Source: a virus (Duplodnaviria > Heunggongvirae > Uroviricota > Caudoviricetes). Taken from it: a stretch of DNA of 4,055 nt. This document shows positions 1 through 4,055 of the stretch, piece after piece. The notes below the pieces were generated by a model. The model was not told the DNA's origin, did not search any database, and was given only the letters and a program-made list of their open reading frames with translations. The DNA is taken from IMG/VR virus record IMGVR_UViG_2690316099_000008; one strand, given 5' to 3'. The position numbers were made by a program, and so were the translations under genes. Each line of letters starts with the position of its first letter. Position 1 is the stretch's first letter.

Positions 1-31
1 TCGCTCGCTCTCACCACTGAGCTAAAGGGCC
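1..31 (-). tRNA. 5' portion of a tRNA gene running off the left edge (acceptor-stem strand, D-arm, start of anticodon stem). Resembles Ile(CAU)-type tRNAs found downstream of Q in lambdoid/Stx-type phages; the anticodon lies outside the window.
   Basis: Minus strand from coordinate 31 reads GGCCCTT-TA-GCTC-AGTGGTGA-GAGC-G-AGCGA: 7-nt acceptor strand, U8, GCTC/GAGC D-stem with an 8-nt D-loop containing GG, then the anticodon-stem 5' strand. Similarity to Ile-type tRNA is from memory, not a search. Confidence 0.55.
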
Positions 32-230: not shown

Positions 231-270
231 ATCGTTATGACGAATTTACCACAGATTCCGGAAAAATCAA
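231..270 (-). promoter_or_regulatory. Lambda pR'-like late promoter with a sigma70-dependent pause element; the Q-utilisation region.
   Basis: Minus strand: -35 TTGATT (270..265), 16-nt spacer ending in TGg (extended -10), -10 TAAATT (248..243), 6 nt, then AACGAT (236..231) followed by GGG. As I recall it, lambda pR' has the same TAAATT-N6-AACGAT-GGG arrangement. The predicted start falls on the Q stop codon. Confidence 0.6.
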
Positions 271-1089
271 CCTAGTTACCTTTTTTAACTGCCGCTCAGC
301 CCATGCTTCTTCAATATCAAACCGGGTCACCAGCGCATCATAAAATTTCTTAACTGTTTTTTCCCATGACGCGCGTGTTATCTGGTTTGTCACCTCGCAT
401 ATAGCATTAAATGCCTCCGTTGATGGTAGTCTTTCATAGCCACGACCACCACAACGCTGGCAGTCTCTGATAACAGGCATACCACGTTTTACCGACTCTT
501 CACGATGAATGGCGACACCACGCCCACGGCAATCCTTACAGGCGGTGGAAACCTCACCCTTTCCGCCACACTCCGGACAGGCAACTTTTACCACCTCCCT
601 GACTTTTTTCCATTCTTCCCAGTAAGACGGATACACACCTTTCGTACACTTTGCCCATACCGGCGGCTTACCATCCGGATACTGGACCTTGTTTGTAAAA
701 ACTACGCTTTCAATAAATTTTTCCCCATAGCAACAAGGGCACTGCTTTTTACTCGCTGCGCTGCGGGCATAATCCTCAAAAGCGTACGAAGCCATAATGC
801 GCATCACTACCGGTTTTATTTCTGCCGGAAGTTTTCTCAACGCCGCCACACGATCGCACCGACTGAGTGCATAATCTGCCAGTAATTCTGTTGCCCGCGC
901 CCTGTCATTCATACTGATGCCCATTTTCCCCAGGAACGCAGAAAACCCCATCTCAGCCCGATTCTGTGTCATGCCCTGCGCGGCCATCACATCAGTGATA
1001 CTCAGCGCATCTTTCGACGTTGAGGCCGATGCATCAGTCAGGCCGGGGGATTTTGGGGAGTAGTATTTCGGTAAATCTTCCAGTTTCAT
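235..1089 (-). CDS. Q: Late-gene antitermination protein Q-like (284 aa) with a Cys-rich zinc-binding region.
   Basis: Intact 284-aa ORF. Position is diagnostic: directly downstream of rusA (ATGA start/stop overlap) and directly upstream of a lambda-like pR'/pause element and terminator. Contains CPCC plus three CxxCxGxG repeats (aa 117-213). Family assignment rests on synteny and recalled similarity to Q82/QuuQ-type prophage antiterminators, not on a search. Confidence 0.7.
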   Translation of the reverse strand: MKLEDLPKYYSPKSPGLTDASASTSKDALSITDVMAAQGMTQNRAEMGFSAFLGKMGISMNDRARATELLADYALSRCDRVAALRKLPAEIKPVVMRIMASYAFEDYARSAASKKQCPCCYGEKFIESVVFTNKVQYPDGKPPVWAKCTKGVYPSYWEEWKKVREVVKVACPECGGKGEVSTACKDCRGRGVAIHREESVKRGMPVIRDCQRCGGRGYERLPSTEAFNAICEVTNQITRASWEKTVKKFYDALVTRFDIEEAWAERQLKKVTRLIFPESVVNSS

Positions 1090-1460
1090 TTTTTGACCTG
1101 CTCTTCATGCATTATGGGGTAAATCTTCACCCCCAGACGTCCACCAGATACTGGCTGACCACGAACGATATTGATTTCATCAAACTGCTCATCGTCCATT
1201 AACACTCCCGCATGTGTCAGTGCATCCAGTGGTGCTTTCAGGATATTGTCCAGGTCACGACGGCGCTTATCCGGTGGCTCTGCAATAATCTTTATCGCCA
1301 GTCTTCCGGACAGGCTTAATTTCAGTCGCTGCTGACGGACAATAAGCGCCACATCCCGGCGATAACGCTCACCGGCTTTTGATACAAAATATGTGTTGTC
1401 ACGACGTCGCCAGTAAGTATTCACCGTCGGCGGATAAGGTAAAATAAACTCATGGCGCAT
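1086..1460 (-). CDS. rusA: Crossover junction endodeoxyribonuclease RusA (Holliday junction resolvase), 124 aa, intact.
   Basis: Translation carries RusA hallmarks: LPYPPTVNTYWRR near the N-terminus, the acidic catalytic block PDKRRRDLDN...LMDDEQ, and GGRL near the C-terminus. Its stop overlaps the Q start (ATGA) and its start overlaps the upstream gene stop (TGATG). Confidence 0.85.
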   Translation of the reverse strand: MRHEFILPYPPTVNTYWRRRDNTYFVSKAGERYRRDVALIVRQQRLKLSLSGRLAIKIIAEPPDKRRRDLDNILKAPLDALTHAGVLMDDEQFDEINIVRGQPVSGGRLGVKIYPIMHEEQVKK

Positions 1461-1717
1461 CAGCGCAGCACCTCCTGCACCAGTTTTTCAAACTTTCCGA
1501 CTCTGGTTTCCAGCTCTGCCACACAGTCCACCAGCTCATCTACTGCTTTCTGTGCGCGATGCTTCGCCTGCATCAGTTCCCGAAGCGCGGGTACCATATC
1601 TTTACGGATAGCGTCTTTTGTTATGCCCGTTTTTTCGAGTTGTTCAGCATGACGCAGCATTTCCTGCGCGTGTTTACGCAATTGTTCAGGGGTAAAAGTC
1701 ATTGTCTGGTTGTTCAA
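1460..1717 (-). CDS. Conserved hypothetical protein, 85 aa, helical and charged (likely coiled-coil), function unknown (copy 1).
   Basis: ORF conserved in two diverged copies in this window: by hand count about 30 nt differences over 258 bp but only 6 aa changes, i.e. mostly synonymous. Translationally coupled to rusA. The start may be TTG at 1717 (GGAG about 8 nt upstream) or the internal ATG at 1702. Confidence 0.7.
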   Translation of the reverse strand: MNNQTMTFTPEQLRKHAQEMLRHAEQLEKTGITKDAIRKDMVPALRELMQAKHRAQKAVDELVDCVAELETRVGKFEKLVQEVLR

Positions 1718-1837
1718 AAGAAACGCTCCATCTTACTGCTGTCAGTTCGTTTATTACTGTATCTGCGCGGATTGCCGGGCTTCATGGGAGTGGAAAGCAC
1801 CCGTGCACTTTCCTGGTCCACAGGCAGAAAATGTCCG
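1714..1837 (-). pseudogene. 3'-terminal fragment (last 41 codons) of a second DnaB-family helicase gene, truncated at its 5' side by an IS2 end.
   Basis: Minus-strand translation GHFLPVDQESARVLSTPMKPGNPRRYSNKRTDSSKMERFF* aligns in frame with the C-terminus of the intact helicase at 2292..3683. The IS2 left terminal repeat begins at 1838. Confidence 0.6.
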
Positions 1838-1879
1838 TAGACTGGCCCCCTGAATCTCCAGACAACCAGTATCACTTAA
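1838..1879 (+). mobile_element. IS2 left terminal inverted repeat (outer end at 1838, element interior to the right), followed by a single n at 1880; the element body is absent from the sequence.
   Basis: TAGACTGGCCCCCTGAATCTCCAGACAACCAGTATCACTTAA matches the IS2 left end as I recall it. The flanking sequence switches abruptly from helicase 3' end to mid-rusA across the n. Confidence 0.75.
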
Positions 1880-1880
1880 N

Positions 1881-2038
1881 CTTCCGGACAGGTTTAATTT
1901 CAGCCGCTGCTGGCGAACAATTAGCGTCACATCACGGCGATAACGCTCACCAACTTTTGATACAAAATATGTGCTGCCACGACGTCGCCAGTAAGTATTC
2001 ACCGTCGGCGGATAAGGTAAAATAAACTCATGGCGCAT
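1881..2038 (-). pseudogene. rusA: 5' part (first ~52 codons) of a second rusA copy, truncated by the IS2 end / n junction.
   Basis: MRHEFILPYPPTVNTYWRRRGSTYFVSKVGERYRRDVTLIVRQQRLKLNLSG... matches the N-terminus of RusA at 1086..1460. The six-frame ORF continues through the n into IS2 sequence, so the 94-aa ORF is chimeric. Confidence 0.7.
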
Positions 2039-2295
2039 CAGCGCAGCACCTCCTGCACCATTTTTTCAAACTTTCCAACTTTGGTTTCCAGCTCTGCCAC
2101 ACAATCAACGAGCTCATCCACCGCTTTTTGTGCGCGATGTTTCGCCTGCATCAGTTCCCTGAGCGCTGGCACCATATCCCGACGAATGGCATCTTTTGTT
2201 ACACCTGTTTTTTCCAGTTGTTCCGCCTGTCGCAACATTTCCTGCGCGTGTTTACGCAATTGTTCAGAGGTAAAAGTCATTGTCTGGTTGTTCAA
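2038..2295 (-). CDS. Conserved hypothetical protein, 85 aa (copy 2 of the 1460..1717 gene).
   Basis: 93% aa identity to copy 1 (6 substitutions, mostly conservative) despite about 88% nt identity. TTG start overlaps the helicase stop (TTGA) with GGAG about 8 nt upstream; alternative ATG at 2280. Confidence 0.7.
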   Translation of the reverse strand: MNNQTMTFTSEQLRKHAQEMLRQAEQLEKTGVTKDAIRRDMVPALRELMQAKHRAQKAVDELVDCVAELETKVGKFEKMVQEVLR

Positions 2296-3683
2296 AAGAA
2301 ACGCTCCATCTTACTGCTGTCGGTACGTGTATTGCTGTATCTGCGCGGCTGGGGCTGCCGCATTGGGGTGGAAAGAACCTGTGCGCTTTCCTGGTCCACA
2401 GGCAGAAAATGTCCGTTATAAAAACGCCGGTAAATCGTCCCCAGAGAACCGTTACGTTGTTTCGTGATATTAATTTCTGCTATGCCTGTAGCCTGTGTAT
2501 CCGGGTTGTACACTTCATCCCTGTAAAGCATCAGAATGATGTCTGCATCCGCCTCTATTTCTCCGGAATTTTTCAGGTCTGAGTTCATGGGACGTTTATT
2601 GGGTCTGGACTCCACACCGCGGGAGAGCTGGCTCAGCGCAATCAACGGAAAACCACCGGATTTTGCCAGGCCTTTAAGCCCCTTTGAGATTTCACCCACG
2701 GCAAGGTCATGACGCCCCGTGGTTCGGGTTTTTATCAGCCCGAGATAATCAACCACCACCAGCGCCGTTTCCGGATGTTTAATCAGATGGTGTTTCGTTG
2801 TTGCGCATATCTCATCAATGGTCAGGTTCGCCTGGTCCACCATCCAGATATTGCGCCCGGTCATCCGCCCCACCCCTTGTGAGAAACGCGCCCAGTCTTC
2901 ATCTTCAAAGTGAGCCACAGATTTCAGGCGTGATACTGGCATCCCTCCAGCCGCAGACACCATACGTTCACCAATCTGGATGTTCGCCATCTCCATGGTG
3001 AACAGAAGCACACCATGCCCCTGCTCAGTCACCTTGTCGATGATGTCCAGCGCAAGTTCGGTTTTCCCCATCGAAGGACGGGCGGCAATGAATACCAGGT
3101 CTCCGGGCTCCATACCGCCTGTTTTTGCGTCCAGTTCATCAATACCGGTCATCAACGTCCTGGATTTCTCCAGCCCCTGATTCCGGCATTCAACACGCTC
3201 AACCACTTCCGGAAGCACATCATCAATATGTACCGGCTGAATGACGCCCTTTCCTGTCGACAGTGTGACCATCATGTTCTGCGCATCCTTCAGGGCATCT
3301 TCAGCTGCTTCACAGGTATGCGCATCACGTAATTTCTGCAGCGCCTCATTCAGTGTTTTTTCTGCATCGCGCAGTGCGGCATTGCGCCGCAACGCTGCAA
3401 CATAGTGCTCCAGTGAAGACTTCACCCAGGTTTTACGCCCGGTATCAGTAATCACCGGGGCAAGTTCCGGCATCTCATTACACAACAGCACGGGGTCAAT
3501 CACTCCTGAAACACGGGCCTGTCTGCAGATGCCTGTGTAGATATCCCGATACGCTCGTACAGAAAAAATGTCCGCCGGTAGTGTGATCAGAATATCCATC
3601 ACTTCATGATCTGCCCCACGCAGAAAGAATGCGCCAATGACAGCGCCTTCCAGGTCATCATTACGCCAGACTGGTGTTGTCAT
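2292..3683 (-). CDS. DnaB-family replicative DNA helicase, phage-encoded, 464 aa from the ATG at 3683.
   Basis: Walker A GDLVFIAARPSMGKT; DnaB C-terminal domain blocks (VVVDYLGLI, LSQLSRGVESRPNKRPMNSDLKNSGEIEADADIILMLYRDEVY, KQRNGSLGTI); DnaB N-terminal domain similarity. GAGGTG Shine-Dalgarno 7 nt upstream of the ATG. The longer 510-aa ORF in the track starts at a GTG inside the IS2 end and is rejected. Confidence 0.85.
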   Translation of the reverse strand: MTTPVWRNDDLEGAVIGAFFLRGADHEVMDILITLPADIFSVRAYRDIYTGICRQARVSGVIDPVLLCNEMPELAPVITDTGRKTWVKSSLEHYVAALRRNAALRDAEKTLNEALQKLRDAHTCEAAEDALKDAQNMMVTLSTGKGVIQPVHIDDVLPEVVERVECRNQGLEKSRTLMTGIDELDAKTGGMEPGDLVFIAARPSMGKTELALDIIDKVTEQGHGVLLFTMEMANIQIGERMVSAAGGMPVSRLKSVAHFEDEDWARFSQGVGRMTGRNIWMVDQANLTIDEICATTKHHLIKHPETALVVVDYLGLIKTRTTGRHDLAVGEISKGLKGLAKSGGFPLIALSQLSRGVESRPNKRPMNSDLKNSGEIEADADIILMLYRDEVYNPDTQATGIAEINITKQRNGSLGTIYRRFYNGHFLPVDQESAQVLSTPMRQPQPRRYSNTRTDSSKMERFF

Positions 3684-3787
3684 GCAGCCACACCTCTGAT
3701 ACAAGAACGGTAGCTGGGCCAGTTGAACGACAACCAGTTGCGCCCCCCGTCTGTGATCCTGTCGGCAATGCGGGGGCTGATGAACGC

Positions 3788-3840
3788 TGGATTTGCCCCT
3801 ATATTTCCAGACACCTGTTATCACTTAACCCATTACTGGC
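3788..3840 (-). mobile_element. IS2 right terminal inverted repeat (outer end at 3788, element interior toward higher coordinates), running into the N gap.
   Basis: Plus strand TGGATTTGCCCCTATATTTCCAGACACCTGTTATCACTTAACCCATTAC is the reverse complement of the IS2 right end as I recall it. It lies 104 bp upstream of the helicase start codon. Confidence 0.75.
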
Positions 3841-4022
3841 NNNNNNNNNNNNNNNNNNNNNNNNNNNNNNNNNNNNNNNNNNNNNNNNNNNNNNNNNNNN
3901 NNNNNNNNNNNNNNNNNNNNNNNNNNNNNNNNNNNNNNNNNNNNNNNNNNNNNNNNNNNNNNNNNNNNNNNNNNNNNNNNNNNNNNNNNNNNNNNNNNNN
4001 NNNNNNNNNNNNNNNNNNNNNN
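3841..4022. other. Assembly gap (182 N).
   Basis: Run of n characters; presumably the collapsed IS2 body and/or unknown sequence. Confidence 0.95.
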
Positions 4023-4055
4023 ACCGCCTGCTTTCTGATCTACCGCAAATGCTAA

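Follow-up and report, generated by a model that had tools for sequence, protein, structure and literature searches.

Lambdoid prophages of E. coli and Shigella carry replication and nin modules in which a helicase gene, an 85-aa ORF, rusA and Q stand in an order seen in many E. coli prophages, and paralogous lambdoid modules show mosaic identity between copies, with different Q types downstream. In Shigella, lambdoid remnants decayed by insertion sequences are already well known, and IS2 (IS3 family) insertions are found in the prophage remnants of S. sonnei. Draft genomes add a described kind of artefact, the false joins made by scaffolders and gap-closers (for example in Velvet + SSPACE + GapFiller drafts), in which a placeholder n separates repeat-ended flanks whose places in a closed genome are far apart. 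The paper on the Sanger pipeline built from these three programs covers 299 assemblies of S. sonnei, which average 405 contigs, and its authors caution that such greedy tools can produce false joins (PMC5320598). Drafts of S. sonnei whose accessions bear neighbouring CX.. prefixes are credited to Holt et al. 2012 (PMC5447701); the assembly considered here, GCA_001253215.1, was found neither in the literature nor in the supplementary lists of the Sanger pipeline study (PMC5320598).

The window analysed, 4,055 bp in length, is the entire record CXDD01000305.1 of that assembly, a scaffold made of three sequence blocks with n or N between them. It holds parts of two of the IS-decayed lambdoid remnants, with their common mosaic helicase/85-aa ORF/rusA module. 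From the sequence comparisons described below, we consider that the two copies of this module are real relatives, from two different S. sonnei prophage remnants, and that their adjacency, together with the truncation of the second rusA, is an artefact of draft assembly, a reading to which we assign a probability of about 0.9.

The DnaB-type helicase, RusA and Q genes (PF03796, PF05866 and PF03589) are transcribed in one direction. Block A (1-1879), from prophage 1, begins with the 5' part of a phage-borne tRNA gene (1..31, minus strand), cut by the record end, which aligns to the tRNA following Q in the matching closed-genome locus (L027, placed below) and is annotated as tRNA-Ile in FDAARGOS_944; ARAGORN called no tRNA in the window, the gene at 1..31 being truncated. 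There follow, all on the minus strand, the gene for a 284-aa antiterminator Q (235..1089; PF03589 Antiterm, E=7e-55), with the gene order of the closed S. sonnei loci L022-L031; the full-length rusA copy 1, of 124 aa (1086..1460; PF05866 RusA, E=1.8e-16); and copy 1 of the 85-aa ORF (1460..1717), which belongs to PHROG 2565, of unknown function, and whose protein occurs unchanged in closed S. sonnei genomes. Next is the 3' remnant of the DnaB-type helicase 1 gene (1714..1837, minus strand), which the first-pass annotation had put at 41 codons. The remnant is real and cut by IS2, and it comprises the last 40 codons plus the stop. It is 100% identical to L027, IS2 junction included; the truncation is common to closed S. 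sonnei genomes, and the intact homologue, in the closed S. sonnei loci L025 and L030, has 463 aa. Block A stops within the left end of IS2 (1838..1879, plus strand), the first 42 nt of the element, which match K-12 IS2A at 41/42 positions and are identical to L027. Past window position 1879 the IS2 of L027 continues ATAAGTGATAG...

Block B (1881-3840), from prophage 2, begins inside rusA copy 2, of which only the first 52 codons are present (1881..2038). After it come copy 2 of the 85-aa ORF (2038..2295; again PHROG 2565, of unknown function), the gene for the 463-aa DnaB-type replicative helicase 2 (2292..3683; PF03796 DnaB_C, E=7.8e-73), whose exact protein occurs in S. sonnei 53G (HE616528.1) and other closed genomes, and the IS2-cut 3' remnant of an upstream ATP-binding (helicase-loader-like) gene (3684..3787), annotated as 'ATP-binding protein' under matches that end at 3787. 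All of these lie on the minus strand, as does the IS2 right end at which block B stops (3788..3840), the last 53 nt of the element, inverted with respect to 1838-1879. These 53 nt match the right end of K-12 IS2A with 3 mismatches and are identical to the corresponding closed-genome locus (L005), where a 1,331-bp IS2 with ORFs of 121 aa and 301 aa, or their fusion, lies past window position 3840. As with the IS2 insertions in S. sonnei prophage remnants, both junctions agree base for base with closed genomes; the window differs from those insertions in holding only 42 and 53 terminal nt, the bodies of the elements being unassembled, and a complete 1.3-kb IS2 with InsC/InsD-type ORFs is absent from it. 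Beyond block B, a 182-N scaffold gap, read from the sequence, spans 3841..4022, and the third scaffolded piece is a 33-nt fragment (4023..4055) that matches E. coli genomes at 100% inside yejO, a chromosomal autotransporter gene. This fragment was not found in the S. sonnei loci compared, even allowing 3 mismatches, and is missing from the 21 kb that surround helicase 2 at the ~1.84 Mb locus of CP045526.1 (L005).

The two copies, 1303-1837 and 1881-2415, are 535 nt long each, with a copy-to-copy spacing of 578 nt, and align collinearly and gaplessly at 478/535 identical positions (89.3%), a similarity far above chance. This confirms the indel-free direct repeat reported in the first-pass annotation, whose account of the gene content, the IS2 end and the single n also holds (PF hits; IS2A match 41/42; n at 1880). 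Each copy contains the final 40 codons of the helicase gene with its stop, the 85-aa ORF and the first 52 codons of rusA, all of them minus-strand. Identity is 93.0% in the rusA 5' portion, 88.8% in the 85-aa gene (29 nt and 6 aa differences between the copies) and 86.3% in the helicase 3' end; it ranges from 74% to 100% per 50-nt window, with exact runs of 83, 53, 32 and 30 nt. The left limit of homology, 1303/1881, is the start of the second block in the record and is not biological: in the closed genome, similarity extends over the remainder of rusA, with 175/217 aligned positions identical up to the rusA1 stop, and this extension includes an exact run of 80 nt (CP045526.1 locus L005 against the window).

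Both blocks could be placed in the closed S. sonnei chromosome CP045526.1. Block B is identical at 1960/1960 positions to the region at 1.83-1.85 Mb (L005), and block A matches 0.19-0.21 Mb (L027), with window 1178-1879 100% identical; the two loci lie ~1.64 Mb apart. Elsewhere block A shows ~9 site differences from the closed genome and a 101-nt insertion, in and after Q, so the source strain is not identical to CP045526.1. What follows copy 1 in closed S. sonnei genomes is a RusA of 124 aa and then a Q of the PF03589 type (284 aa); copy 2 has after it a RusA of 123 aa, a Q of the PF06530 type and an HNH/terminase/portal set. These different Q types and downstream genes support the earlier suggestion that the copies come from two different lambdoid prophages and not from a recent tandem duplication. 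In S. sonnei, IS elements (IS2, IS21-family, IS600-like) have caused both copies to decay, and these otherwise show nothing unusual with respect to lambdoid modules. A search for either IS2 junction gave no match covering a junction in any of 5,426 closed E. coli genomes, and these are therefore Shigella-lineage insertions, from a source other than a typical E. coli; the helicase-1/IS2 junction likewise had no match in a species-representative genome collection. An old tandem duplication of the block inside one prophage, since diverged, would agree with the 535 nt of indel-free collinear similarity at 578-nt spacing, but we regard it as the most improbable of the explanations and rejected it, each copy being identical to its own closed-genome locus ~1.64 Mb from the other, with Q genes and late regions that differ between the loci and a mosaic identity of 74% to 100% as expected for lambdoid module exchange.

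The join itself is not covered by determined sequence. The n at 1880, the sole isolated n in the window, is a placeholder between two contigs, one ending in IS2 and the other starting in rusA; in the closed genome the left flank continues as IS2 and the right flank as rusA2. Contig ends fall at repeats throughout, block A 42 nt into IS2, and block B one base from the 80-nt repeat on one side and 53 nt into IS2 on the other. Past window position 1881, rusA2 of L005 has a single SNP, after which 80 nt are the same as in window 1222-1301, an exact inter-paralog repeat (R1) within rusA copy 1; the first base of block B is thus one base after the SNP preceding the repeat, and the contig stops at this edge because rusA2 continues as the 80 nt identical to rusA1. 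Breaks within or next to this rusA stretch are also seen in other draft contigs (L013, L019, L020). The ~52 codons that had been noted as all that copy 2 retains of rusA are consequently a contig end at an exact repeat and not a property of the gene, which has its full 123 aa in L005 and is intact in 10/10 loci examined.

We propose that the adjacency is an artefact, and no prophage fusion, because two contigs ending in repeats were linked by a scaffolder, with a single base as placeholder. The window would be a short scaffold from a short-read draft of S. sonnei that is highly fragmented, and would be composed of three contigs, all of them repeat-ended. Block A would derive from a degraded lambdoid prophage with the order tRNA, Q, rusA, 85-aa gene and helicase 3' remnant, in which an ancestral IS2 insertion cut helicase 1; its contig would enter this IS2 for 42 nt and then stop. 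Block B would come from a second degraded lambdoid prophage ~1.6 Mb away, with another IS2 at its right, and its left end would be the point at which the rusA of prophage 2 becomes identical, over 80 nt, to that of prophage 1. Read pairs with a mate in the shared 80 nt may have mapped only to A, creating an A-B link with a negative implied gap; the false link itself we infer. The scaffolder, the gap-closer or both would then have set B after A, leaving a single n as no overlap was found. SSPACE and GapFiller probably leave a single n where contigs abut without detectable overlap, although an explicit statement on single-N gaps was not found in the GapFiller paper. The case differs from documented false joins in that the literature consulted does not document the software used for CXDD01000305.1 and the read-pair cause is one that we infer. 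The possibility of a chimeric assembly, raised in the first-pass annotation beside that of a fusion, is in this way favoured by blocks that lie ~1.64 Mb apart in CP045526.1 and are joined by an n only.

The main alternative is a strain-specific rearrangement mediated by IS2, with a full IS2 at the n, between the helicase-1 remnant and a rusA2 interrupted at codon 52; IS2 would first have inserted anew into rusA2, and IS2-IS2 recombination would then have fused the prophage remnants. S. sonnei has many IS copies, both blocks already adjoin IS2 elsewhere, assembly from short reads would reduce a complete IS2 to a gap, and the strain is slightly different from the closed references; judged on sequence alone, a rearrangement peculiar to this strain keeps a small share of the probability. 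However, the left end of block B carries no IS2 base, while the two genuine IS2 flanks of this scaffold carry 42 and 53 nt of the element, and the gap is of 1 n and not ~1.3 kb. Moreover, a start one nt from an 80-nt exact repeat is what a break in the assembly graph predicts, and an insertion site would fall there only by coincidence. Intact rusA2 in all ten loci argues in the same direction, as do the copy-specific 41-mers: nine other loci had those of copy 1 only and ten those of copy 2 only, and both sets occurred only in the window's own record, so that 0/19 long loci from other assemblies held the two copies together. We therefore think this alternative unlikely, and slightly less likely still its specific form, that in this isolate a new IS2 in the prophage 2 rusA recombined with the IS2 truncating helicase 1 and that the breakpoint lies under the n. 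If true, such recombination would have truly rearranged the chromosome, by inverting or deleting as much as ~1.6 Mb. The IS2-mediated or homologous-recombination fusion of prophages put forward initially accordingly finds no support, with only an n at the join, no IS2 bases on the B side, flanks that each continue differently in the closed genome, and the arrangement in none of the 19 other loci.

Read literally, the record has one unknown base between the blocks, which could mean continuous sequence with a single ambiguous base: an IS2 of which 42 terminal nt remain, fused directly to rusA2 in a deletion-type prophage fusion. We rejected this direct fusion, which we hold to be very improbable, since in the closed genome each flank runs on into a known sequence of its own, the expected base being A on the IS2 side and C on the rusA2 side. 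IS-adjacent deletions of IS3-family elements keep the IS end intact and leave no 42-nt stub, with which the stub seen here is at odds, and the second N-run, joined to the 33-nt yejO fragment, shows the record to be the product of a scaffolder.

Short scaffolds of IS-rich Shigella drafts can, then, juxtapose paralogous prophage modules and make genes appear truncated, and caution is needed in reading them; taken at face value, they would cause too many pseudogenes, prophage fusions and tandem duplications to be counted. CXDD01000305.1 is small and ranks low among the scaffolds of a fragmented draft, and the 5' fragment of rusA in it yields a chimeric ORF of 94 aa that contains an X.

Exact look-up of the Q protein showed that the window is the entire record CXDD01000305.1 (4,055 bp; assembly GCA_001253215.1), and therefore a complete small draft scaffold rather than a piece cut out of a chromosome. 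The CXDD prefix fits, circumstantially, the Shigella sonnei draft series of Holt et al. 2012, of which PMC5447701 lists members with the accession prefixes CXBN, CXBR and CXBV. Determined sequence is present in three stretches, 1-1879 (block A, prophage 1), 1881-3840 (block B, prophage 2) and 4023-4055, with a single n (position 1880) between the first two and a run of 182 Ns between the last two. Every gene is on the minus strand. Block A carries, from the left end of the window, the first part of a tRNA gene that runs off the end of the record, then a 284-aa Q antiterminator (235-1089; PF03589), a complete rusA encoding 124 aa (rusA1, 1086-1460; PF05866), copy 1 of an 85-aa ORF (1460-1717), the 3' end of a second helicase gene (helicase 1, 1714-1837; 40 codons and the stop) and 42 nt of the left end of IS2 (1838-1879), which agree with the IS2A annotated in E. 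coli K-12 at 41/42 positions. The n stands between this IS2 end and block B, which comprises the first 52 codons of a second rusA (rusA2, 1881-2038), copy 2 of the 85-aa ORF (2038-2295), a 463-aa DnaB-type helicase (helicase 2, 2292-3683; PF03796, E=7.8e-73) and an IS2 right end (3788-3840) matching that of IS2A and inverted with respect to 1838-1879. An IS body is expected to the right of both IS2 ends.

The two helicase-3'end/85-aa ORF/rusA modules (1303-1837 and 1881-2415) align without gaps at 478/535 positions (89.3%), as the first-pass annotation had described them, collinear and free of indels. Identity is uneven, ranging from 74% to 100% per 50-nt window, with exact runs of 83, 53, 32 and 30 nt. 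No Pfam family matches the 85-aa ORF, which belongs to PHROG 2565 (function unknown); its alignment covers only the C-terminal ~83 positions of that profile (length 204). The two copies of the ORF differ at 29 nucleotides; 21 codons change synonymously and 6 non-synonymously, leaving only 6 residue differences, a pattern that indicates a real, constrained small coding gene of unknown role. Hundreds of E. coli genomes have lambdoid replication/nin cassettes with the same order of helicase, small ORF, RusA and Q, with identities of 85-95%, and both modules of the window are ordinary paralogous members of this kind.

The modules belong to different prophages. The helicase-2 protein is present residue for residue in thousands of assemblies, including closed chromosomes such as HE616528.1 (S. 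sonnei 53G; PMC5447701). In closed S. sonnei a complete IS2 precedes it, and after it come the 85-aa gene, a RusA of 123 aa, a PF06530-type Q of 128 aa, and then lysis, HNH, terminase and portal genes. The copy-1 85-aa protein is found in another context, with IS600-like and IS2 sequences and an IS21-family element upstream, and a 124-aa RusA and a 284-aa PF03589-type Q downstream. One closed S. sonnei chromosome, CP045526.1, was found in both protein look-ups, with copy 2 at 1,830,033-1,851,424 (locus L005) and copy 1 at 188,828-209,085 (locus L027), ~1.64 Mb apart, bearing out the earlier proposal of modules from two different lambdoid prophages. Block B is identical to L005 over 1960/1960 positions. 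Between ~1178 and 1879, block A matches L027 at every position; to the left of ~1178 there are ~9 differing positions and a 101-nt insertion, in and after Q.

Thus the scaffold joins two contigs that come from far-apart loci of a finished genome of the same lineage; both contigs end in a repeat, and the join itself is an undetermined base. The junction between the blocks is not a real feature, and we put the probability that an assembly artefact explains it at about 0.9. When all retrieved loci were screened with two 41-mers, one specific for each copy, 9 loci carried copy 1 only, 10 carried copy 2 only, and both were found only in the window's own record. All 9 copy-1 loci and 9 of the 10 copy-2 loci were ~20-kb slices of megabase-scale contigs, and none of these slices has the two modules lying 10 kb or less apart. 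Least credible of all the explanations is an old tandem duplication, which the closed-genome mapping contradicts.

The position of the break is also informative. In L005, rusA2 runs on past the equivalent of window 1881: the first base beyond it is G, versus A in rusA1 (gene orientation), and the next 80 nt are an exact match to rusA1 at window 1222-1301. Block B therefore starts one nucleotide from where a short-read assembler can no longer tell the paralogs apart. Other independent drafts break in or beside the same rusA stretch; two of them start inside rusA (L019 and L020), and in a third (L013) the Ns reach up to it. The truncation of rusA2 and the left limit of the repeat at 1303 are therefore properties of the contigs, not of the genome, and the earlier statement that copy 2 keeps only the first ~52 codons of rusA does not hold, closed S. 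sonnei having a 123-aa RusA.

The artefact could have arisen as follows. The 80-nt stretch of rusA2 would have been assembled once only, within block A, so that pairs of reads, one from this stretch and one from block B, would connect the two blocks in just the order and orientation observed, the distance implied being negative. Finding no overlap, a scaffolder or gap-closer would then leave a minimal gap, for which a single n is a convention. For comparison only, as CXDD01000305.1 was not traced to it, the Sanger high-throughput pipeline (Velvet, SSPACE and GapFiller) produced 299 S. sonnei assemblies with a mean of 405 contigs, and its authors describe SSPACE and GapFiller as greedy and capable of false joins (PMC5320598).

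The first-pass annotation had offered prophage fusion, through IS2 or homologous recombination, or a chimeric assembly, and the latter is what the data favour. An IS2-mediated rearrangement peculiar to this strain, in which the n would conceal a complete IS2, is improbable: the left end of block B has no IS2 bases, unlike the scaffold's two true IS2 flanks, the breakpoint coincides with a repeat edge, and rusA2 is intact in every locus examined. Harder still to credit is the record taken literally, with a single ambiguous base where an IS2 stub of 42 nt is fused to rusA2. The public record annotates across the n a 94-aa ORF containing an X (window 1754-2038, minus strand; 2018-2302 in locus L018), in which the rusA2 N-terminus is joined to out-of-frame IS2 and helicase-remnant sequence; this ORF is an annotation artefact of the false join.

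The 33-nt tail after the 182 Ns (4023-4055) exactly matches the chromosomal autotransporter gene yejO in at least 1,128 E. coli genomes. It was absent from the 10 kb to either side of helicase 2 in the closed locus L005, so here again the scaffolder probably linked IS2-flanking fragments.

Both IS2 junctions of the window are reproduced exactly in CP045526.1. Beyond the helicase-1 remnant, L027 reads TAGACTGG...CACTTAA and continues into the IS2 interior with ATAAGTGATAG...; in L005 the sequence past window 3840 is again IS2 (1,331 bp). Neither junction was present in any closed E. coli genome searched, and the helicase-1/IS2 junction had no match in the species-representative genome collection. 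The reduction of helicase 1 to its 3' end at IS2, noticed previously, is genuine, and is ancestral in the lineage. The truncating IS2 is itself interrupted ~145 nt from its left end (L027 9600-9881) by an IS21-family element (istA, 390 aa; istB, 265 aa), giving nested IS insertions in a prophage remnant. In E. coli FDAARGOS_944 (CP065613.1; L001 7621-10279), IS600 splits the helicase at a site other than that of IS2, and the 3' end of the split gene is 100% identical to the helicase-1 remnant; an IS element has here struck the same prophage gene independently, in an 'E. coli' record that is Shigella-like. IS decay of Shigella prophages is already well known.

Window 235-1200, covering Q and the rusA1 3' end, differs from L027 at ~9 sites; the variant bases at the majority of these sites are shared with paralogous Q copies (L012-L017), which lie behind a 126-aa RusA and a DUF968 gene. 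Identical copies of the 284-aa Q protein were found on 14 contigs only, and none of these is closed. These variants possibly reflect gene conversion or the mixing of paralog consensus in the draft. Between Q and the tRNA, a 101-nt segment is missing from L027, and its Q-proximal part matches sequence downstream of another Q paralog, with a methylase neighbour (L013); the cause is either variation of the strain or, for a second time, the collapse of paralogous Q regions or a chimera of them. Two copies of the terminator-like hairpin AAAAACCCGCTCGGCGGCGGGT lie 101 nt apart in the window, at 62-93 and 163-194.
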